A stretch of DNA of 64,000 nucleotides from Nitrospiraceae bacterium (lineage in GTDB: Bacteria > Nitrospirota > Nitrospiria > Nitrospirales > Nitrospiraceae). The translations under genes were made by a program, and so were the position numbers. Positions within the stretch are counted from its first letter, which is position 1. Every line of letters begins with the position of its first letter. The notes under the pieces are model-generated. The model was not told the DNA's origin, did no database searches, and saw nothing but the letters and a program-made list of their open reading frames with translations. Shown one piece after another: positions 38,105-54,232 of this stretch. The DNA lies in assembly GCA_050246315.1 (NCBI GenBank), contig JBFWWG010000013.1, positions 40,366 to 104,365 of the forward strand, read 5' to 3'.

Positions 38105-41100
38105 GTGCGTGGTGATCGACGGTCCCCAACTCGGTCTGATAAGAAGGCTCCGGCCCGCGCTCATAAGCGAAGCCAGGGATCCGGCCCATCATCCTCCAAG
38201 AAATCCGCCCTTCTCGAAGAAGCGATCACCCACATGAATGCCGGCCGCTATGGCCGATCGTCTTCCGTACTCAAGGAGTTGCTGACGATTGACCCCGCTA
38301 ATCCGGAGGCGAAGCGGCTCTTCGCCACGCTACAGCTTCGGTTGGGGAGCCTGGTGACCGCCAGAAATGCTTTTCAGGCGTTGACGGATGAAGCGTTGGA
38401 ACGACAGGACTATTGGCTTGCGGAGTCCTTATTAAGAGAATATTTGGTCGCCGGCCCCCGCTGCGTGCCGTTTGTGGAAAAGCTCGGTTCCGTCTTTGAA
38501 CTCAAGGGCGATTTGGATGCCGCTGTAGAAGAGTATGTCAAGGCGGTCGAGATCCTCGTCGAAGATCCCGATTCGGAACAGCCCGATTTTGCGGCTCGCT
38601 TGGTGACGAAGATTGCCCAACTGTCCCCGCACAATCCGGTTCTGCTTCATTTGGAGTCCCTTTTGCGACAGGCGAAGGAACATCCGCGCGACGAGATGCC
38701 CATGGACGAGGACGGCACCCGGCCACGGTTGGCGCCGGGCCTGTCGGGTCTCGATCAACCGGCTACAGATGTCGAGTTTCGCATTCCGCCGGCCGAAGCG
38801 TCCTCCGATCACGAACGTGCGCGCCTACCATGGGAGGAGGAGGCCGACGATATTGTCGTGCCGCAGCAGCCGACGGCTGGTCAGGATGCTGGAGCTTCAA
38901 CATCGAGTCAGGATGTTCCTGAGCAACCGGTGCAACTGGTAGGCCTTGGCACGTTGCCGGTCCCGCACGATGTAGAGATTGCGGCGACGCATGCTCTCCT
39001 CTCGTCGGACCGGCCTGCCCCGCCATCGCCGGAGAACACGCTTGCGGTAGCAGAACCGGAAAGCGTTCAGAGGAAGTGGTCTACAGTTCCGATACCCGAG
39101 TCGCCTCTCTCTGCTGACCCAAGGGTTGCGGAGATCGGCCAGGAGGAGGTTCCTCCAGCCTCGTCAATCGGGGATACGGCGCTTATACCTGCTCAATTGA
39201 AAGATGGGGTCGAGCGGCCGGGAGCGCAACTCAATGTCATCCCCGAGCCGGCAGAAATGGGCGAAACGTCTTCGGGGCTCACCGAGTTGAGGCTTCAGGA
39301 AGGACCGACCGACCAGGACCTTTTACCTGGGAGTCGGCCGGAGCCAACTCCGCTCGGCGGTGGATTGACGGCCACCGAAGAATCCCCCTCGGTTGAGATC
39401 CTCTTGCGTCAAGAGAACTCCGAGTCCGATCGACCCAACGAAGCGGTTCCCCCTCCGATGCCCTGGGAACAAGTGCAGGAAATTCGTCTGGAATCGATGC
39501 CGGTTGAGACAGCGGACAGGCTAGTTGTCGAGGAAGTTAACGAAGACCTCATCGCTGGCATCCTGCAACAGATCGACTTGCGAGAGCGCCTTGCCGGTGA
39601 ATTGATGGGAGCCGCGATCCTAGAGGTTCCGGACCACCCGCTTGCATCCGAACCCGCCGCATTGCCGGAGTTGGAACCCGTGTTGGATGTTCCGTCCACG
39701 GTATCGATCGGTAAGAGAGATGAAGCAGAGATAGCGCTCGTGACGCCGCCGGCCGATCCCTTGCCGGATGCGCCTTCAATGCCGTGCGTTACGGAACCAA
39801 AAGAGCCGTTCGACGCGGCACCAGCCTCTGAAATTGTAGCGGAAGGCAGTCCCCCGGCCACCTTGGTGGAGGAAGCATTCGACCGACCAGTCGAGACAAG
39901 CCAGCCTGGGGACATCGCGATACAGTCTGCGTGGCTCGACACAGCCCCGACACTTGCCCTGCCACAGGATACCGATACCGCGGTAGGATCCGCCGCTCAG
40001 ATCGAATCGTCCGAGATTGTCAGAACCCGAGAGGACAGCTCAAGGGAAGAGAATACTTCCGATTCGTCTTGGCCGCTGCCGGAATCCGAAGAGGCGCCAA
40101 CGGCCGGAATGCCTACGTACCCATCCTATCTGGATCAAGCGAGGGTCGTAGCCGATCCTGTAGTCCCCGCTATCCAAGAAGCTGCCGTGAAGGATTCGGA
40201 CTACTCGGGAACAGAAACGCTGCTCGTCGGTGAAACCGTTCCTGAATCACGGATCGGATCGGAACCTCAGTTGATTACCGACTTGGAAGGATCCCCTCCT
40301 GGATATTCAGAACCGGAGATTGTCGAAGCGGCCGATCCCCTGTCTGTTGTCGGAGAGGGCACAGCGGCCTCTCCTGACTTGGCTGATCGCTATGGAAACC
40401 GCTCCGAACACGAGCGTCACCGGCAAGCAGGTGCGTTGGAAATGGGCCCTTCGATCGGACCAGAGGAGCAACTTCCGGAGGCGCCTCCCATTTCTGAATC
40501 ATGGGTTGCGGAACCCGCGACTCCCTTCCAGTGCCGCTTGGTCCCAACGATCGCCGACGAAGCAAGTCGCGAAGAGGGGGCGACCACACAGCCCTGGCCG
40601 GTGCACCTTCGTTCGCGATCGGAATCAGAGCAACCCGCGGGCTCATTCGCTCCATTGGAATCTAGACGGCACGAGGACGAGCCGGTGGCCGCACGTCCTG
40701 CGCCGGTCACAGAACCATCGAGTAACCTCATCGCGACGCTTGAACCTGCGACGGATAGAACGTTGGCCCAGAAGGAGGCCTCGGTCCAGTTCCAAGATTC
40801 ACGAAAACCTTTAGCGACTGTTGGGCTCACGGACTCGACCGTTCGGCCGGCGTCGAGGCCTGTCACGGCGACGCTCTCCCGGTTCTTCTTGCGGGGCGCC
40901 CTTTTCATACGGTCTTGCTTTGCAACCGCCCACGCCGTGGCGGTGACTCTGATCAGTCTCACGCTCCTTTCCATGGGGTGTGCCATTCTCCTGGTCGGGG
41001 GATTGGGACTTGTCTGGTTAGGATTGGAAGAGAAACCGAATTCGGCCTTTCAGGACTTGGTAGCTGCGCGGCCCCAGCTCACCGAAGATCCCAATCGCAA

Positions 41101-42322
41101 CGGGGCGCTCTTCCTGATGGGGTTTGCCGCGCCGGAATCCAAAGATCCGATTCAGGTCGGTCTCGCGATCCAGCACGAGCAGTCCGGGCTGGGTGCGGCA
41201 AATGGTTGCGTGACCGAGGACGATCCGACTATTCCCCACACCGGCCAAGTCTCCGCCCCCTCCTTGGCGAGATGGTATCGCGAAGAGGTCCCGTCCATCC
41301 TATTCCGCGACAAAGCCACGACGGTCAAGGATTGGGTCAGGACTCGATCAATGTCGATGACTCGATATCAGAAGTGGTTGTCGCTGCCGTTTGATGATAC
41401 GGGCTATGGACAGCCCGCGACTCCGGATTGTCGGCTGATTCTGGACGTGCACCGGCTCTTTGTGGCGGAAGGTTTCGCACAAGGCCTGGAACCGGGGATC
41501 GAGCGACTGGAAGCTGATCTTCCCACGTGGCGAGGACTGCTACGGAAGGCCAAGACCTTGGGGACCAAAATGCTCGCCGTTGCGGCCGTCAATGACGATG
41601 CTCGTGTCGTCTCAGGGCTGTTGGGTATGCCGGAGTTAGATGCGCGATCTCTGATGCGATTGGCGAAGCTTGTGTCCCCGCTGGATAGTGCCGAACAGTC
41701 CCTACGCTGGCCCATGCAGCATGAGTTTCTTCTCGCCAAGCAACGGATCGAAATGACTAGCCGGGCCGACCGCCATCCCGCTCGACCCTGGTACGTGGCA
41801 GGGGTTGCGCTGATGCCGCTGCCAGACCAACGTATCCTGAATGCCTATGCTGACTACTATGAAGACCTGATCAAATCCGTCGAGACTGCCCGGACAATGC
41901 CGACGGGGCTCAGTCCTTATTCGCACATCCGAACGCCGGCGGTCCGGCTGGTGGACTACCTGCTCAATCCTGTGAACAATATTCTGGAGGTTCCTCCGGG
42001 GCCTGCTTGGGAGCAACCGATCGGTCAGATACGAGAGACCGATGCATTGCTGCGGTTGGTCAGCCTTCAGGCGTGGATTCGGAAAGGACCCGTGGACGGC
42101 GACGTCAAGACTCGGGTAGCTAAGGCAGGGCAGAATTTCTATGATCCTTTCACGGGCTATCCGATGTTGATCAACCAGGCCACGAATCGGCTGTATAGTG
42201 TGGGGGCCGACGGCAAGGACGACGATGCCGTGGCGCAGAAGGACGTTAGCGTTCGCCTCTCGACCGCGGGCGCACCACCCAGTCTGAGTGCTGCCTCGCC
42301 GACCAGCACTTCATCAAGATAG
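38105..42322 (+). CDS. Large membrane protein: N-terminal TPR, ~750-aa Pro/Glu-rich linker, TM segment, C-terminal extracytoplasmic domain
   Basis: TPR-like helices to ~aa 190, low-complexity acidic middle, hydrophobic stretch around aa 940-975, C-terminal DPFTG..LYSVGADGKDD. Confidence 0.85.
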   Translation: MRGDRRSPTRSDKKAPARAHKRSQGSGPSSSKKSALLEEAITHMNAGRYGRSSSVLKELLTIDPANPEAKRLFATLQLRLGSLVTARNAFQALTDEALERQDYWLAESLLREYLVAGPRCVPFVEKLGSVFELKGDLDAAVEEYVKAVEILVEDPDSEQPDFAARLVTKIAQLSPHNPVLLHLESLLRQAKEHPRDEMPMDEDGTRPRLAPGLSGLDQPATDVEFRIPPAEASSDHERARLPWEEEADDIVVPQQPTAGQDAGASTSSQDVPEQPVQLVGLGTLPVPHDVEIAATHALLSSDRPAPPSPENTLAVAEPESVQRKWSTVPIPESPLSADPRVAEIGQEEVPPASSIGDTALIPAQLKDGVERPGAQLNVIPEPAEMGETSSGLTELRLQEGPTDQDLLPGSRPEPTPLGGGLTATEESPSVEILLRQENSESDRPNEAVPPPMPWEQVQEIRLESMPVETADRLVVEEVNEDLIAGILQQIDLRERLAGELMGAAILEVPDHPLASEPAALPELEPVLDVPSTVSIGKRDEAEIALVTPPADPLPDAPSMPCVTEPKEPFDAAPASEIVAEGSPPATLVEEAFDRPVETSQPGDIAIQSAWLDTAPTLALPQDTDTAVGSAAQIESSEIVRTREDSSREENTSDSSWPLPESEEAPTAGMPTYPSYLDQARVVADPVVPAIQEAAVKDSDYSGTETLLVGETVPESRIGSEPQLITDLEGSPPGYSEPEIVEAADPLSVVGEGTAASPDLADRYGNRSEHERHRQAGALEMGPSIGPEEQLPEAPPISESWVAEPATPFQCRLVPTIADEASREEGATTQPWPVHLRSRSESEQPAGSFAPLESRRHEDEPVAARPAPVTEPSSNLIATLEPATDRTLAQKEASVQFQDSRKPLATVGLTDSTVRPASRPVTATLSRFFLRGALFIRSCFATAHAVAVTLISLTLLSMGCAILLVGGLGLVWLGLEEKPNSAFQDLVAARPQLTEDPNRNGALFLMGFAAPESKDPIQVGLAIQHEQSGLGAANGCVTEDDPTIPHTGQVSAPSLARWYREEVPSILFRDKATTVKDWVRTRSMSMTRYQKWLSLPFDDTGYGQPATPDCRLILDVHRLFVAEGFAQGLEPGIERLEADLPTWRGLLRKAKTLGTKMLAVAAVNDDARVVSGLLGMPELDARSLMRLAKLVSPLDSAEQSLRWPMQHEFLLAKQRIEMTSRADRHPARPWYVAGVALMPLPDQRILNAYADYYEDLIKSVETARTMPTGLSPYSHIRTPAVRLVDYLLNPVNNILEVPPGPAWEQPIGQIRETDALLRLVSLQAWIRKGPVDGDVKTRVAKAGQNFYDPFTGYPMLINQATNRLYSVGADGKDDDAVAQKDVSVRLSTAGAPPSLSAASPTSTSSR

Positions 42323-47236: not shown

Positions 47237-47265
47237 TTGACAATCTAATTCAACGTCCATATAGT
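47237..47265 (+). promoter_or_regulatory. Near-consensus sigma70 promoter of the TRL gene pair
   Basis: TTGACA-N17-TATAGT in an AT-rich intergenic stretch. Confidence 0.75.
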
Positions 47266-47363
47266 GACGCCGTCTTGAGCAGTCCGGTCTAAGGGGAAGC
47301 CTACAACCCTGACGACATGTTCGCTACCTTCTCAATCCATTCCACATTTAACAGGGAGGGAGT

Positions 47364-47681
47364 ATGAAACGGAACCTAATCCTTGCCGCGGTTGCTGCAA
47401 GTATGTTGACGCTCTACGGTTGTCAACCGGTTCACTCGCCGCTGACCGGTGTCATCTTCAACGAGACTAAGTTTGGCTATGTGGCGACCACCAATGCGGC
47501 GACGACCAAGGAAGGCAAGGCCTGCGGCACCACGATCCTGGGGTGGGTGGCGACCGGGGATATGAGCCTCACCGCGGCCAAAGCGGCCGGTGGGATCACC
47601 AACGTGTCCCATGTGGACCATTCCGCTCATAACATCCTGGGGATCTTCGCGGAATTCTGCACGATCGTGAAGGGCAACTAA
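47364..47681 (+). CDS. TRL-like family lipoprotein, copy 1
   Basis: Lipobox LYGC; KEGKAC..ILGWVATGD.S..AAKAAGGIT.V..VD....NILG....CTIVKG. Confidence 0.85.
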   Translation: MKRNLILAAVAASMLTLYGCQPVHSPLTGVIFNETKFGYVATTNAATTKEGKACGTTILGWVATGDMSLTAAKAAGGITNVSHVDHSAHNILGIFAEFCTIVKGN

Positions 47682-47714
47682 GCCGCCACTCTCTCGACGA
47701 TTGAAGGAGGAGCT

Positions 47715-48032
47715 ATGAAGAAGCATCTCGTGCTTGCAGCATTGACGGTGTCGTTGTTGAGCCTCTACGGGTGCCAGCCGGTGGCGTCGCCCTTGGTGGG
47801 TATTATTTTCAACGAAACCAAGTTTGGGAATCTGGCCACGACCAACGCGGCGGCGACCAAGGAAGGGAAGGCCTGCGGCACCACCATCCTGGGCTGGGTG
47901 GCCACCGGGGACATGAGCATCAGCGCGGCCAAGGCGGCGGGCGGCATCACCAATGTGGCCCATATCGACTATACCGCCAAGAACATCCTCGGGATCTTTG
48001 CAGAGTTCTGCACGATCGTGAAGGGCAACTGA
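47715..48032 (+). CDS. TRL-like family lipoprotein, copy 2
   Basis: Tandem paralog of identical length (105 aa); SD AAGGAGGAG; lipobox LYGC. Confidence 0.85.
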   Translation: MKKHLVLAALTVSLLSLYGCQPVASPLVGIIFNETKFGNLATTNAAATKEGKACGTTILGWVATGDMSISAAKAAGGITNVAHIDYTAKNILGIFAEFCTIVKGN

Positions 48033-48056
48033 CCTCCATTCGGATAGGGTTCGACG

Positions 48057-48088
48057 AAAGGGCCTGGGTAACCAGGCCCTTTTTGTTT
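48057..48088 (+). terminator. Rho-independent terminator
   Basis: AAAGGGCCTGG-GTAA-CCAGGCCCTTTTTGTTT. Confidence 0.9.
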
Positions 48089-48099
48089 GTGGAGACCTG

Positions 48100-48816
48100 A
48101 TGCACAATCGGGTATGCCATGGTTCCAAGGACGATCGGGTGCGGCGTCTCCGTAGATTCCGTGAACGGCGAGGTGCTCGCAACTGGGGAGTCGCGCTCAG
48201 CATAGGCTTTCTTGTAGTACTGACGCTTGCTCCCGACAGTACTTCTGCGCAAACGAAAGATTTTGTATACATCGCGGCAGCGTTGGTCGGAAGCTTTCCC
48301 GAAGATAAGGACGCCGTGTTCCAGGGGCTGTCGCGGGGCGGCACTCAGCTCCGACCGGGCGTCGGATTGGGCATCAAAACCGCAGTCTTCCCGGCTTTTG
48401 TGAAGCGCATGGTCGGGCTGGAACTCGAATACGTCGGGCATTCGGGACGGATCCAATTCCCGCTCTCGGGAGCTAATACGGGACGGTCCGGCAGTTCGGC
48501 GCTCACGGTACTCACGTCTATGGCGAATCTCATGGTGCAATATCCCGACGCGGTCGTACAGCCTTATGCCGGAGTTGGAATGGGATGGGCAACGGGAATC
48601 TTGACCGATACGGACATTCCCGACAGGCCGGATCGCGGCTTCGAGGGAGCGTGGGCATTCAGTTATCAATTCATTACGGGTGCGCGAACGCGACTTTCCC
48701 CACGGACATTCCTCTTTGCCGAGTACAAATATCTTGCGGCCAATTTTCATTGGACTCAATTGGCCGTGGATTTTCGCTCACACTACGTGCTGTTCGGCGT
48801 GGGGCTGAGTTTTTGA
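48100..48816 (+). CDS. Small outer-membrane beta-barrel protein (start uncertain)
   Basis: Signal peptide, QPYAGVGMG, FSYQFITG, FAEYKY, C-terminal FGVGLSF beta-signal. Confidence 0.85.
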   Translation: MHNRVCHGSKDDRVRRLRRFRERRGARNWGVALSIGFLVVLTLAPDSTSAQTKDFVYIAAALVGSFPEDKDAVFQGLSRGGTQLRPGVGLGIKTAVFPAFVKRMVGLELEYVGHSGRIQFPLSGANTGRSGSSALTVLTSMANLMVQYPDAVVQPYAGVGMGWATGILTDTDIPDRPDRGFEGAWAFSYQFITGARTRLSPRTFLFAEYKYLAANFHWTQLAVDFRSHYVLFGVGLSF

Positions 48817-48946
48817 CTGGCCGCATCCGCGCGCAATTAAGGTGGATGGCCTCTGTCTTGCTTCTCGCATTCTGTTATACTTCGCCCCGACCCGTAATCC
48901 ATGCGCTCCGCGTTCATTACAACCCTTTTGCCGGGAGAAGGACAGG

Positions 48947-49456
48947 ATGAGGCACGCCGTCGAGTTCCAACTGGTTGCGATGCTTTTGGCCATACAGGTT
49001 GGGACGGCCTATGCGACCAACCCAGACACAGGCCCAGGGTGCGGGTTAGGTAAAATGCTGTGGGCCGATCATAAGAACCAAAAGAACATCGCCCCTCAGG
49101 TATTGATGGTGACGACCAATGGCACGGGGATGAACACGTTCGCGATCAGTTCCGGAACCTCCGGATGCACGAATGACGGGCAGGTGTGGGCTGAGCAGAA
49201 GGTCACGACCTTTGCGAGCCTCAATTTCGACAATCTGGCCCAAGAGATGGCTCAAGGAGAAGGCGAGCATCTGTCCTCCCTGGCCACGCTCATGGGTGTG
49301 CCCGCCGAGCATCAAGCCGAGTTTTTTGCGATGACACAGGAGAAATACACGAGCCTGATGCAGGGAGGAGCGTCTTCCCCCATGGCCTTAATTAAAGACT
49401 TGAATGACGCGATCGACGGCCATCCGATCCTCGCGAAGGCCACCGCGCCCCACTGA
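48947..49456 (+). CDS. DUF3015-family secreted protein
   Basis: Signal AYA; GPGCGLG, TFAISSGTSGC, LAQEMAQGEGEHLSSLATLMG; extended -10 TGTTATACT upstream. Confidence 0.85.
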   Translation: MRHAVEFQLVAMLLAIQVGTAYATNPDTGPGCGLGKMLWADHKNQKNIAPQVLMVTTNGTGMNTFAISSGTSGCTNDGQVWAEQKVTTFASLNFDNLAQEMAQGEGEHLSSLATLMGVPAEHQAEFFAMTQEKYTSLMQGGASSPMALIKDLNDAIDGHPILAKATAPH

Positions 49457-49499
49457 AGGCCTTGCGGTTCCCGATTGTTCAAGATTTGGGGAAGCTCGG

Positions 49500-51428
49500 G
49501 TGTTCCGCTACCACCTCCGTTTGGCCGTCCGGTGTTTCTTCTGCTGCCTACTCATCCTCCTATCCCGCATCGCCGCCGCCACTGTACATGATCCATCCGG
49601 TTACCTCAGCGAATTGATTCAAACCGCCGACAGAGAGGCGCTGGCCGATCGTCGAGAATGGCGACAGCTCCTTCACTACTACCCAAGGCTCTTTGGTGGC
49701 ATGAAGAGTCAACAGGACGACGAGGGATTCTTTCTTTCGCGGAAAGGAAAGACCAGTCCTCGGATCGAACTGGAAGCCACCCTGGCCGCCTTTTTCAGAG
49801 ACGATCTCGTCGGGCGTTCCAGACAACCGGCCCAATGCGCGTTCATGGCCCGGTACACATGGTTGAAGCAACAGTTGGCGTTCGATGAGCGGCGCCTGCC
49901 TCCGCAACGTTGCGAGCGGTTTGAAAATTGGTTCAAGGAATTGAATGCCGAGGGCATCAGCCTGATTTTTCCCGCCGGGTTCATGAACAACCCGGCTTCC
50001 ATGTTCGGACATACTTTTTTACGCATCGATCAGCGGGGTCAGACCGAGCAGACGCGGATTCTCGCCTACACGATCAATTTCGCGGCGGAAATTCCTCCTG
50101 ATGCCGGACCGGAATATGCCTACAAGGGAATCTTCGGAGGCTATCCGGGGCGATATTCGACCATTCCCTACTACTTGAAGGTGCAAGAATACCGCGATAT
50201 TGAGAACCGCGATATCTGGGAATATCGGCTGAATCTGTCTGAGGAGCAGATCCGGCGGCTGCTCATGCACGCCTGGGAAATGGGCAATGCCACGTTTGAC
50301 TATTATTTTTTTGATGAAAACTGCGCCTACCACATTCTCTCGCTGCTCGATGCAGCCGACCCGTCATTCCATCTCACCGACGGGTTCCCGTTCTATACCC
50401 TGCCGAGCGACACGGTTCGCCGGGTCATCTCGCACCCGGGACTGGTCAAGGACGTCGTGTATCGGCCATCGAGACGCACGCTGGTCGGTCAGAAGCAGCG
50501 AGCCATGTCGCCAGATGAGAGGGTGCTGCTTGGGAACCTGGTTGAGGATCCGCAGGTGTTGCAGACCGACGCGTTTGCCGCGCGCACGCCCGAGCGGCAA
50601 GCGTTCCTCATGGATACAGCCTCCGATTACCTCCTCATGCGAGGGGGGGGAGATCCTCAACGTTCCTCCGTGTTCAAGGATCGTAATCGGGCGATTCTTC
50701 TGGCCCGGAGCAGGCTCAAGGTCCTGCCGGAGGAGCCGCCTATCGTACCATTCACCGACCGGCCCGACCGCGGACACGGTACGGCTCGCGTCGGGGTGGG
50801 TGCGGGATGGCGTAACAACGACGCATACACGGAACTGGCTTTCCGCGGGGTGTATCATGATCTCCTGGACCCGGAACCGGGCTATACGCCGGATGCGCAG
50901 ATCGAGTTGGTTTCCGTGGGGCTCAGGTACTACCACAATCAAGATCAGACCAGACTGGAACGATTCGGGGTCATGAATGTGGTTTCGTTGTCTCCGATGG
51001 ATAACCTGTTCAAGGCGCCGTCCTGGAAGATGAATCTGGGGATGAACACCATCAAGTACAATACCTGCGATCTGTGCAGCAACGGGGTCGCCGGCGGAGG
51101 CATCGGCGCGGCCTTCGAGACCAGGTGGTTCAAACGGGAAGTCTACTTTGGGTTTGCTGAGGTCGAGGCGAACTACAGCCGGGCCTATGATGACCGGTAT
51201 CGGATCGGAGGAGGCGGTACCCTCGGTGTGTTGGCGGATCTCACCGAACGGTGGAAGCTGCTGGTCTCGTCCACCTATCTCACCTTTCCGCTGGGGGATC
51301 GGTCGGACGATTGGCGATGGTCAGTCGGACAACGATATACGATCAGCCAGAATCTCGCCCTCCGGCTCGAGTATCATCACCGCGATCACGACAACGATGT
51401 TGAGTTCCTGTTGCACGCCTATTTCTGA
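49500..51428 (+). CDS. DUF4105 / Lnb-like protein with C-terminal beta-barrel
   Basis: QCAFMARYTWL, NNPASMFGHTFLRID, ENRDIWEYRLNL, YYFFDENCAY, YHDLLD; ends in LHAYF. Confidence 0.85.
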   Translation: MFRYHLRLAVRCFFCCLLILLSRIAAATVHDPSGYLSELIQTADREALADRREWRQLLHYYPRLFGGMKSQQDDEGFFLSRKGKTSPRIELEATLAAFFRDDLVGRSRQPAQCAFMARYTWLKQQLAFDERRLPPQRCERFENWFKELNAEGISLIFPAGFMNNPASMFGHTFLRIDQRGQTEQTRILAYTINFAAEIPPDAGPEYAYKGIFGGYPGRYSTIPYYLKVQEYRDIENRDIWEYRLNLSEEQIRRLLMHAWEMGNATFDYYFFDENCAYHILSLLDAADPSFHLTDGFPFYTLPSDTVRRVISHPGLVKDVVYRPSRRTLVGQKQRAMSPDERVLLGNLVEDPQVLQTDAFAARTPERQAFLMDTASDYLLMRGGGDPQRSSVFKDRNRAILLARSRLKVLPEEPPIVPFTDRPDRGHGTARVGVGAGWRNNDAYTELAFRGVYHDLLDPEPGYTPDAQIELVSVGLRYYHNQDQTRLERFGVMNVVSLSPMDNLFKAPSWKMNLGMNTIKYNTCDLCSNGVAGGGIGAAFETRWFKREVYFGFAEVEANYSRAYDDRYRIGGGGTLGVLADLTERWKLLVSSTYLTFPLGDRSDDWRWSVGQRYTISQNLALRLEYHHRDHDNDVEFLLHAYF

Positions 51429-51450
51429 GCTGTGAGAGACCGAAGGGACT

Positions 51451-52206
51451 ATGCTCGACCGGCTGTTCCTCTATCATCCGGCGCCCTGGGAGGAGCGTGA
51501 CTGGGCAAGGTTGAGCGGTCTTCCGCTTGAGGAAGTGCGGTTCCGGGCGAAGGATGGTCCGGAACTGTTCGGTTGGTATCTCAGGGCTTCCCGGTCGTCG
51601 GCCGTGTTGTTATGGTGTCACGGCAATGCAGGTAACGTGACGCACCGGCTGGAAAATCTTCGCGCCCTCTACCAAACCGGCCTTTCGGTGCTGCTCTTTG
51701 ATTATCGTGGCTATGGCCGCAGCGAAGGTCGACCGTCCGAGCAGGGGCTGTATCGAGACGCCCTAGCCGCCTACGACCACTTGGTCACCCATCAGCACAT
51801 CGACTCGGAACGACTGGTGTTGTTTGGACGGTCGCTCGGGGGAGCCGTGGCCGGCGAACTGGCAGTGCGACGTCGGGCAGCGGGTCTGATTCTGGAATCG
51901 ACGTTTCCGTCCGTCGAGGCCGTTGCCAGATTCCACTACTGGGGGTTGCCCGCTCATTGGCTGATTGGCGCCGAATTCCGTTTGGTCGACCGGTTGCCGC
52001 ACCTCATGCTTCCATCCCTTGTGATCCATGGAGATCAAGACGATCTGATTCCCCCGGCCTTGGGGAAGGCCGTCTTCGATGCGCTCAAGGGACCCAAGAC
52101 CTTTTACCTGGTGAAAGGAGCCGATCATAATAACTTGCCGTTTCAGGGAGGACTCGCCTATTTCACCCGCCTTCGTTCGTTCATCGAGTCCGTCGTTCGG
52201 GGATAG
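51451..52206 (+). CDS. Alpha/beta hydrolase (YfhR/ABHD17-like)
   Basis: CHGNAGN, DYRGYGRSEGRPSEQGLY, FGRSLGG, IHGDQDDLIP, GADHNN. Confidence 0.92.
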   Translation: MLDRLFLYHPAPWEERDWARLSGLPLEEVRFRAKDGPELFGWYLRASRSSAVLLWCHGNAGNVTHRLENLRALYQTGLSVLLFDYRGYGRSEGRPSEQGLYRDALAAYDHLVTHQHIDSERLVLFGRSLGGAVAGELAVRRRAAGLILESTFPSVEAVARFHYWGLPAHWLIGAEFRLVDRLPHLMLPSLVIHGDQDDLIPPALGKAVFDALKGPKTFYLVKGADHNNLPFQGGLAYFTRLRSFIESVVRG

Positions 52207-53019: not shown

Positions 53020-53257
53020 TTTTCCGCCCCACCGTTAACAGACCGGCACCCATGGTCGTTTCCCTTTCCGATCCCCAATACCGACATTGTGAATCTGGTT
53101 TCGCACACGGGTAGGAAGCGGCCGGATCGATTTTATCCGTCCACTCTCTGAGATACTTTGAGTTGTCGCTCTCTATTTGCTAAAGTTCAGCCTTCTACGC
53201 AGTTCATACAATCAGGATAAGTTGAATACAGTGGAATGTCATTGCGAGGGTAGGACT

Positions 53258-54232
53258 GTGTCAGCAGTGGGATGTCGGAGGTGGCGAGAGGCCCTGCTGT
53301 GGCTTGTCCTCATCAGTCTGAGCGGATGCGCCGATCACATCGAGTTGCTTCAGGCCAGCCACGCCTCGTCATTTCACCTGTCATCGGTCCTGCCGACAGC
53401 CGAACAGGAACGAATCCCCGTCTCGATGGCAGCGGCCGCCGAACCAGTCATGGCTGGCTCGCAAACGCCCCCCCCTTCGCCGCAGTCTGCCCAATCAGGC
53501 ACAACCGATTTGCCCGACGACCTTGCCGGGGACGAGCCCTTCGATCCGTTTGCCAGTCCGCAAGATGTTGTCGAGGAATACGATCCCTGGGAGCCGTTGA
53601 ACGTCTTTATGTTCGAGGTCAACCGCAAGATCGACACGTATGCCCTCAAGCCGATTGCCAGGGCCTATAACGCCGTGCTTCCCAATGATGTTCAGCGAGG
53701 GGTGCAGAATTTCTTTCATAACGCTCGTACAGGGCCTCGATTCTTCAACAATCTATTCCAAGGGAAGCTGAGAGGGGCGGGTATAGAACTCGGCCGCTTT
53801 GCGCTCAACACCACCTTTGGTCTCGGCGGCTTCTTTGACGTGGCCAAGCACATGCGAATCGAGACGCCCGATGAGGATTTTGGCCAGACGTTGGGCTATT
53901 ACAACGTGCCGCAGGGACCCTATCTCGTCATCCCGCTGTTTCCGCCGTTCACGGTCCGCGATTTTACCGGTTACTTGATGGATCTGGCGCTTGATCCGAT
54001 CAACTGGCTGGTGTTTCCGATCATTGAGATCAACAACGTTCCCTCGTTGGTCGCCCACCAAAACCGCATGACCACCACAATTGTGCAACTGGGTTCCCGA
54101 GCCACCTTCATCGTCAATGAGCGGTCGCGTAATCTGGAGACGTTCGAAGGAGTTGAGGAGTCTACAATCGACCTGTACAGTGCCGTCCGCAACGCCTATC
54201 TGCAGAAACGCGTGAAGCTGGTTCGGGAGTAA
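53258..54232 (+). CDS. mlaA: MlaA/VacJ family lipoprotein
   Basis: Lipobox LSGC; YDPWEPLN..MFEVN, RFALNTTFGLGGFFDVA, EDFGQTLG, GPYLVIP, DLYSAVRNAYLQ. Confidence 0.92.
   Translation: MSAVGCRRWREALLWLVLISLSGCADHIELLQASHASSFHLSSVLPTAEQERIPVSMAAAAEPVMAGSQTPPPSPQSAQSGTTDLPDDLAGDEPFDPFASPQDVVEEYDPWEPLNVFMFEVNRKIDTYALKPIARAYNAVLPNDVQRGVQNFFHNARTGPRFFNNLFQGKLRGAGIELGRFALNTTFGLGGFFDVAKHMRIETPDEDFGQTLGYYNVPQGPYLVIPLFPPFTVRDFTGYLMDLALDPINWLVFPIIEINNVPSLVAHQNRMTTTIVQLGSRATFIVNERSRNLETFEGVEESTIDLYSAVRNAYLQKRVKLVRE

Follow-up and report, generated by a model that had tools for sequence, protein, structure and literature searches.

Gene content and conserved core of the locus

The DNA under study is a 64,000-nucleotide (nt) stretch of the genome of a Nitrospiraceae bacterium (GCA_050246315.1, contig JBFWWG010000013.1, positions 40,366-104,365, forward strand), referred to below as the window, and the subject of the analysis is a gene group at its positions 47237-52206. 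The list of encoded proteins includes two TRL-family lipoproteins, a small outer-membrane beta-barrel, a secreted DUF3015 protein, a large enzyme combining an Lnb_N (DUF4105) domain with a predicted outer-membrane barrel, and a serine hydrolase (Table 1). A preliminary description of this region had listed six co-oriented genes. All six open reading frames (ORFs) were confirmed, with families assigned by Pfam matches, and the motifs and spacing quoted there (FGHTF, ENCA, the C-terminal HAYF, GRSLG and a gap of 22 nt before the hydrolase) are all found in the sequence. Relatives sharing 50-91% identity belong mainly to Nitrospira/Nitrospiraceae records (39 of 42 loci).

Table 1. Features of the locus, numbered from the first nucleotide of the window (aa, amino acids)
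Feature	Positions	Strand	Basis and remarks
Sigma-70-like promoter TTGACA-17-TATAGT, before the TRL pair	47237-47265	+	11/12 consensus matches
TRL-family lipoprotein 1, 105 aa, Cys20 after lipobox-like LYGC	47364-47681	+	PF13146, E 1.5e-25; family-restricted accessory
TRL-family lipoprotein 2, tandem paralogue, 80% identical to copy 1	47715-48032	+	PF13146, E 5.8e-26
Intrinsic-terminator-like hairpin (12 pairs) and T-run, closing the TRL unit	48056-48088	+	Sequence scan
Small outer-membrane beta-barrel, OMP_b-brl, accessory	48100-48816	+	PF13505, E 3.8e-8
DUF3015, secreted partner, core gene	48947-49456	+	Pfam, E 2.6e-44
DUF3015 N-terminal two-Cys, Thr/Ser/Gly-rich segment (GCGLG...TTNGT...SGTSGC)	49037-49168	+	Conserved; candidate anchor or acyl acceptor
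DUF3015 predicted docking helices, mature 66-92, invariant A79, G81, G83	49211-49291	+	Complex model and conservation
Core enzyme: signal peptide, DUF7843, Lnb_N (permuted NlpC/P60), helical linker, barrel DUF7840, terminal Phe	49500-51428	+	Likely start GTG 49500
His of FGHTF, mature H144, corresponding to Lnb His49	50010-50012	+	Model alignment, conservation; PMC11573676
Cys of ENCA, mature C248, corresponding to Lnb catalytic Cys148	50322-50324	+	Model alignment, conservation; PMC11573676
Helical linker predicted to bind DUF3015, mature 341-382; L373 93%, R376 98% conserved	50601-50726	+	Complex model
Predicted 12-stranded outer-membrane beta-barrel, mature 403-615	50787-51425	+	AlphaFold2, fold searches
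Alpha/beta serine hydrolase, Hydrolase_4, GRSLG, Ser128 at 51832-51834	51451-52206	+	E 7.3e-20; without signal peptide

The conserved core of the locus is formed by DUF3015 and the Lnb_N enzyme fused to a predicted 12-stranded barrel. Its distribution was followed in 121 Nitrospirota genomes, in a second phylum sample of 171 genomes (centre G003) and in metagenomes, where all counts refer to the best 80 of 547 loci; samples centred on G001 and G002 draw largely on the same pool as G003 and were not counted as a third sample. Genomes with both DUF7840, the barrel domain, and DUF3015 were taken as carriers. There are 65 of them: 47 in Nitrospirota (20 from the family of the window and 27 others; the DUF7840 count is that after removal of two sub-cut-off matches) and 18 in the second sample. 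Linkage counts are given without a statistic because related genomes are not independent.

DUF3015 and DUF7840 mark identical Nitrospirota genomes, and in 47 of 47 they lie no more than 2.5 kb apart. In the second sample they likewise occur in the same 18 of the 171 genomes, always adjacent, 1.2-1.5 kb apart. DUF3015 precedes the enzyme in 76 of the 80 metagenome loci, the four misses being contig starts. Among five gammaproteobacterial records the pair is adjacent in four, as a bare two-gene unit in Salinivibrio, Pseudoalteromonas, Photobacterium and Acinetobacter nosocomialis; the fifth contains an enzyme copy flanked by insertion sequences (IS) and without DUF3015. The two families are thus co-localised across Nitrospirota, the second phylum, metagenomes and Gammaproteobacteria, and the earlier proposal that DUF3015 is a partner of the large protein is upheld by this linkage and by the binding predicted below. 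All 20 family genomes have a single intact copy of the pair at one fixed locus.

The enzyme family is large, with 3117 representatives at 50% identity (E up to 1e-30), and the pair, which spans Nitrospirota, the second phylum and Gammaproteobacteria, is unstudied. No description of the barrel-fused Lnb_N form or of a DUF3015 function was found in the literature searched, which left most subscription journals outside. DUF3015 appears in one Leptospira expression table (PMC13066512). Among the matches listed, DUF4105 is treated in a paper on Lnb (PMC11573676) and in one on Tox-Act1 (PMC12994826) with its preprint, and a transport role is guessed in one sentence elsewhere (PMC10318531); the part covered of a 2026 envelope review mentions neither Lnb nor DUF4105.

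Two further details concern the pair. The IS-flanked enzyme copy that has no DUF3015 belongs to an Acinetobacter baumannii plasmid (L055:4866-10291), where two ISAba1 copies enclose it together with blaADC. DUF3015 proteins of 161 aa and enzymes of 648 aa fall in one 90%-identity cluster (P0132), which hints at a fused or read-through member, though none is among those listed.

The enzyme and its predicted complex with DUF3015

The enzyme is 642 aa long from the likely start, while the longest ORF opens at 49404. It matches the Pfam families DUF7843 (E 5.5e-22), Lnb_N (E 1.8e-59; 200.7 bits against a cut-off of 22.2) and DUF7840 (E 4.7e-59). Residues H144, N247 and C248 (mature numbering) are invariant in 150 of 150 diverse sequences, and N166 is found in 124. 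Positions 44-149 of the NCBIfam Lnb model (NF051878) align to enzyme residues 199-309, and this stretch of the model holds the His49-Asn66-Cys148 set of Lnb, in which Cys148 was shown to be essential (PMC11573676). The intact His and Cys motifs noted in the preliminary description therefore belong to a conserved Lnb-type His/Asn/Cys set. The His precedes the Cys, which is the order of permuted NlpC/P60 proteins; DUF4105 has been placed in this clade, whose members act on acyl linkages (PMC12994826, section 11). Sequence searches of the PDB gave no significant relative for the enzyme, DUF3015 or TRL.

The enzyme shares with Bacteroides Lnb the Lnb_N domain, the same order of His, Asn and Cys at similar spacing, and the arrangement of an exported catalytic domain on a membrane anchor. 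Lnb has 398 aa and five predicted inner-membrane helices and substitutes for a missing Lnt (PMC11573676). In contrast, the protein described here would be anchored by a predicted 12-stranded outer-membrane barrel, has an additional DUF7843 domain and linker, is encoded next to a DUF3015 partner and coexists with Lnt: LNT_N was found in the genome of the window and in all 64 other carriers. With Lnt kept in 65 of 65 carriers, a role as an Lnt substitute like Lnb is ruled out. Three criteria for Lnb, namely the inner-membrane anchor, the full-length score and a host without Lnt, all gave a negative outcome, and automatic 'Lnb' labels on barrel-fused proteins should not be taken to indicate Lnt replacement.

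A His-before-Cys papain-like core tied to acyl transfer or phospholipase activity is also shared by LRAT/HRASLS, YiiX, TseH and Tox-Act1 (PMC12994826, section 11) and by LnsA (PMC11573676). In the portions available, none of these is presented as a resident enzyme that is maintained vertically, anchored by a barrel and provided with a docking partner, and Tox-Act1-clade proteins, unlike the enzyme here, sit in conflict loci.

The AlphaFold2 model of the enzyme (predicted local distance difference test score, pLDDT, 96.5; predicted template modelling score, pTM, 0.94) contains a 12-stranded barrel, and a terminal Phe is present in 112 of the 150 sequences. The strand connections on the side of the N- and C-terminus are long and conserved (0.64 and 0.47), while the opposite loops are short and variable (0.16-0.30). 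As a rule, both termini of an outer-membrane barrel face the periplasm. The part preceding strand 1 and both of the long conserved connections should therefore be periplasmic and the short variable loops external, and it is likely that the enzyme is periplasmic and not surface-displayed. The catalytic domain would be docked under the barrel, and a periplasmic orientation of this domain is assumed with good confidence. The barrel strands contain conserved Arg and Gly residues, and the region of the invariant P275 appears at the barrel mouth.

PldA and LpxR act on acyl chains in the outer membrane, with active sites on the barrel itself. They resemble the enzyme in being 12-stranded outer-membrane barrels (PDB 1fw2, 3fid), but its catalytic residues lie on a separate Cys/His domain. 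EstA, AaaA and NalP (PDB 3kvn, 9oqa, 1uyo) also combine an N-terminal enzyme domain with a C-terminal 12-stranded barrel ending in Phe. The likeness to these proteins is restricted to the barrel: autotransporter structures (EstA, NalP, EspP) align over it alone, from residues 397-403, no pore or linker helix was aligned in the fold searches, and no autotransporter Pfam match was obtained, which speaks against a classical (type Va) autotransporter. The enzyme also has its long conserved loops on the terminus side. The N-termini of OMPLA (PldA), Tsx and OmpG align in several rows to residue 140 or 274-276 of the catalytic domain. The Z-scores of the barrel were 14.4 for EstA, 12.5 for NalP and 13.5-14.6 for Tsx, NanC and KdgM.

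Modelled alone, DUF3015 has a confident fold from about residue 55, and its conserved two-Cys segment 1-54 has pLDDT below 50. The fold has no detectable relative (best Z 5.9; the Atlas search returned its own family alone), and a PDB sequence match of positions 15-61 to a peptidoglycan-binding protein (E 0.5) was not used. A complex of the DUF4105 protein with DUF3015, modelling of which had been proposed at the outset, was predicted with an ipSAE of 0.81 against 0.00 for the best control; at least 65% of contacts were common between runs and the partner pLDDT was at least 64. The mark used for such models was reached by 116 of 157 solved pairs and 2 of 215 mismatched pairs, which is a calibration that holds only roughly for the alignments made for this analysis. 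In the model, DUF3015 helices 66-92 and 108-115 pack against the enzyme at its linker (L373, R376) and at positions 155-161 and 198-206. H144 and C248 are outside the named contacts, and the N-terminal segment of DUF3015 is unplaced. Interface residues of DUF3015 are more conserved than the remaining domain (0.68 vs 0.48). It is predicted that DUF3015 docks on the helical linker, away from the His and Cys, as a dedicated subunit. Such an interface would be the first concrete role for DUF3015, with specific residues to mutate.

Extra DUF3015 copies are of a lipoprotein type in 15 of 20 hand-picked loci, as judged by eye. These paralogues have a lipobox Cys in place of the two-Cys hairpin and keep the Thr-Thr and Thr-Ser pairs and the docking motif. 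The second copy in the genome of the window is of this type (L005:1462-1890) and lies beside a gene with an IS200-like transposase domain; in genome G273 such a copy directly precedes the enzyme. The N-terminal segment thus seems interchangeable with a lipid anchor and may therefore be a membrane anchor or an acyl acceptor. As separate observations, one locus (L211, in G049, which has seven DUF3015 matches) contains four DUF3015 copies in tandem and, after them, a fragment of a hydrolase gene, and a DUF3332 gene lies just upstream of DUF3015 in L023 (5602-6324), with relatives in eight Nitrospira loci.

The linked hydrolase and the possible function of the pair

The serine hydrolase is the sole third gene that recurs beside the pair across lineages. 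In 38 of the 47 Nitrospirota carriers its distance from the pair is no more than 5 kb (23 of 27 outside the family and 15 of 20 within it; in the remaining family carriers it is displaced by a 15-18 kb insert in four and found on another contig in one). It adjoins the pair in 9 of the 18 carriers of the second sample, with one partial case, and in 33 of the 80 metagenome loci. The association with the large protein proposed in the preliminary description thus extends far beyond close relatives. The hydrolase profile was built from pair-adjacent genes, which makes its score ranking circular, and positions alone were counted.

The gene may be upstream or downstream of the pair and belongs to two subfamilies. 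A pattern search found a lipobox-like Cys in 48 of 54 rows of HGN[AG][EQ]N-type hydrolases; 15 of 16 rows of the Nitrospiraceae type are without it, and the Cys of the lone exception is upstream of the likely start. A quick tree (Shimodaira-Hasegawa-like approximate likelihood ratio test, SH-aLRT; midpoint root; L006, L014, L061, L108 and L135 left out) grouped the Nitrospiraceae hydrolases with two lipoproteins of the second sample, in a clade apart from that of the remaining 56 sequences. The hydrolase of the window is 32% identical to the main type and stands where most other lineages have a lipoprotein hydrolase. The presence of two subfamilies at the same position suggests that the activity, not the lineage, is kept there.

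The hydrolase has the G-x-S-x-G, Asp and His set of alpha/beta-hydrolases. It had been labelled 'ABHD17-like', but the best PDB sequence match is the MARTX ABH domain (E 4.6e-18). The copy in the window lacks a signal peptide, and an in-frame stop precedes it by 15 nt. It is probably a cytoplasmic protein, which makes it a poor candidate for the possible deacylase of envelope lipoproteins suggested earlier. In pair-less Nitrospirota, the lipoprotein hydrolase mostly adjoins one shared conserved gene of about 360 aa (eight loci, L175-L182).

It seems that the core pair forms a periplasm-facing acyltransferase or lipase complex of the outer membrane, with DUF3015 as a subunit and a linked hydrolase that clears lysolipid or reverses acylation; to this reading as a whole we give about an even chance. 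Its chemical part, acyl transfer or phospholipase activity through a Cys thioester, is fairly probable in view of the conserved residues. An inner-leaflet phospholipid would donate a fatty acyl chain to the Cys enzyme, which would hold it as an acyl-thioester and then pass the chain on or hydrolyse the thioester. DUF3015 would dock on the enzyme as a dedicated subunit, possibly as the acyl acceptor, and the likely task of the serine hydrolase would be to remove lysolipid or undo the acylation. The best guess for the acceptor, a tentative one, is the unplaced Cys/Thr-rich N-terminus of docked DUF3015, with water or another lipid as alternatives. The lipoprotein acyltransferases known so far are enzymes of the cytoplasmic membrane, and an Lnb-type enzyme anchored in the outer membrane alongside a working Lnt implies an additional envelope acyl-handling step. 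The gene set would be a previously undescribed way to move fatty acids at the outer membrane.

Several results weigh against this interpretation. The match of the enzyme to the full-length Lnb equivalog is weak (23.1 bits against a cut-off of 550), whole-protein fold searches gave barrels alone and no match to the catalytic fold, and the enzyme side of the interface is not above the remaining N-terminal part in mean conservation (0.47 vs 0.52). Long connections on the periplasmic side and short loops outside are contrary to what barrels usually show, and an extended linker may run through the barrel lumen. The Nitrospiraceae hydrolase is without a signal peptide, the gene is absent from the five gammaproteobacterial records and from 47 of the 80 metagenome loci, and the main type occurs in nine Nitrospirota genomes that have no pair. 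PldA was considered as a complement of the hydrolase, but no pattern emerged: it is present in 14 of the 65 carriers, many of which also have the hydrolase.

A more specific version would be a second protein lipidation system, at the outer membrane and independent of Lgt and Lnt. In it, DUF3015 would be a docking tag that binds the linker of the enzyme and feeds its own Cys/Thr-rich N-terminus into the active site, a protein processed by signal peptidase I would gain an acyl anchor after export, and the lipoprotein hydrolase would remove the anchor or clear lysolipid. This would amount to a periplasmic cycle of reversible acylation. The lipobox-swapped paralogues that keep Thr-Thr and Thr-Ser fit lipidation of DUF3015, and we consider this version rather unlikely.

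The enzyme may also cut instead of transferring: mature triacylated lipoproteins at the outer membrane would be trimmed or released by its deacylase or amidase activity in the periplasm, with DUF3015 as an adaptor and the hydrolase finishing the lipid. Lipoproteins should arrive N-acylated in all 65 Lnt-bearing carriers, the Cys/His chemistry equally supports hydrolysis, and both the docking motif retained in lipoprotein-type DUF3015 paralogues and the recurrence of the hydrolase agree with such a role. On the other hand, no conserved client lipoprotein is linked to the pair and the closest characterised relative, Lnb, is a transferase (PMC11573676). We consider the deacylase an unlikely explanation.

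Another explanation takes the barrel for a channel of a small molecule or lipid, with the periplasmic enzyme processing what passes, e.g. an acylated compound, and DUF3015 serving as a binding subunit or a cap. Among the best structural matches are the substrate channels Tsx, NanC and KdgM, and the conserved Arg and Gly of the strands and the P275 region at the mouth are compatible with it. However, these Z-scores tie with those of autotransporter barrels and show the shared 12-strand fold only, the outer loops are short and variable, and no transporter or catabolic genes recur nearby. We regard a channel as quite unlikely.

A toxin-immunity pair is more doubtful still. In this case a lipid-attacking NlpC/P60 toxin would sit on an autotransporter-like barrel, with DUF3015 as the periplasmic immunity protein. 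The sister clade Tox-Act1 comprises lipid-targeting toxins, some with type V secretion (PMC12994826), the barrel resembles EstA and NalP, and DUF3015, which binds the enzyme in the model, occurs in tandem and orphan copies, as in G049. Against this, family genomes have one intact copy at a fixed locus, no autotransporter linker helix was aligned, the predicted interface omits H144 and C248, secretion-system neighbours do not recur, and no relative was found in viral contigs.

The TRL cassette and neighbouring genes

The promoter and the hairpin/T-run terminator enclose the TRL pair alone. The scan totals are near those of shuffled sequences (5 vs 3.6 promoters, 8 vs 5.8 terminators), so that these two sites carry weight through their quality and placement alone. 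RNA-library contigs from three studies span 47285-48037, with starts at 47285-47319 and, in X1, X7 and X11, ends at 48011-48037; their confinement to the TRL region hints weakly that TRL has a transcript of its own and is not an expression measure. RNA depths were not used to rank genes, and run X2, which spans the whole stretch, may hold DNA.

TRL was found in 36 of the 121 Nitrospirota genomes and 14 of the 171 of the second sample. It is co-resident with the pair in 20 and 2 of them, which leaves 16 and 12 TRL-positive genomes without the pair. Within the family, 8 of the 20 carriers have no TRL match; TRL is within 5 kb of the pair in 11 of the 12 TRL-positive genomes and on another contig in the twelfth. 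Elsewhere it was near the pair in 0 of 27 other Nitrospirota carriers (0 of the 8 with TRL), 0 of 18 second-sample carriers (0 of the 2 with TRL) and 0 of 80 metagenome loci, where distant TRLs could escape a profile made from Nitrospira-like sequences. In 12 hand-picked TRL loci outside the family, none had the pair, the hydrolase or the outer-membrane protein (OMP) as a neighbour, and a tblastn search of plasmids gave no TRL match. The small barrel (PF13505) follows TRL in 13 of 13 TRL-bearing Nitrospiraceae loci, and the resulting TRL-OMP cassette is upstream of the pair in 4, downstream in 8 and divergent in 1.

The TRL pair and the small barrel are a separate cassette kept near the core in Nitrospiraceae only. 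Its nearness despite rearrangements may reflect a family-specific link. TRL is excluded as a conserved partner by the three samples and the 12 outside loci, and the lipoproteins are likely local extras and not dedicated substrates; with Lnt kept in all 65 carriers, the enzyme is not required for N-acylation of TRL. The central proposal of the preliminary description, a dedicated pathway that acylates, processes or surface-displays TRL, is therefore not borne out and is very improbable: the proximity of the cassette in three different positions within the family and the surface localisation described for the Leptospira TRL-family relative Lsa14 (PMC7662565; a below-cut-off match) speak for it, but the co-localisation sought outside close relatives is absent, TRL is missing in part of the family carriers and a terminator separates it from the remaining genes.

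Lsa14 (PF13146; NF047877) belongs to the same small lipoprotein family, the TRLs of the window scoring 60-67 bits against a cut-off of 120, and has, like the TRL family, no known tie to any acyltransferase. The genome of the window has one more, distant member of the TRL family, its third (L003:1498-1824), which is beside a small lipoprotein-like ORF, far from the pair.

Among the neighbours of the group, a 1405-aa protein (window 38105-42322) has tetratricopeptide repeats (TPRs) at its N-terminus, followed by a very long linker that is acidic and of low complexity and, past a hydrophobic stretch, by a C-terminal domain; it has no Pfam match apart from the TPRs. MlaA, the lipoprotein of outer-membrane lipid asymmetry, comes after the hydrolase (window 53177-54232). 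This order, with or without PilZ, is repeated in 14 Nitrospiraceae loci, and in other lineages no MlaA gene was observed beside the pair. Four family genomes (G066, G084, G105, G111) contain the 15-18 kb cluster between enzyme and hydrolase. The genes after the enzyme in related loci (L019-L037) encode a methyltransferase, an acyl carrier protein, a lipid A acyltransferase-like protein, a LolA-like protein and an MMPL protein. The gene cluster downstream of the enzyme presumably resembles those of the aryl-polyene type.

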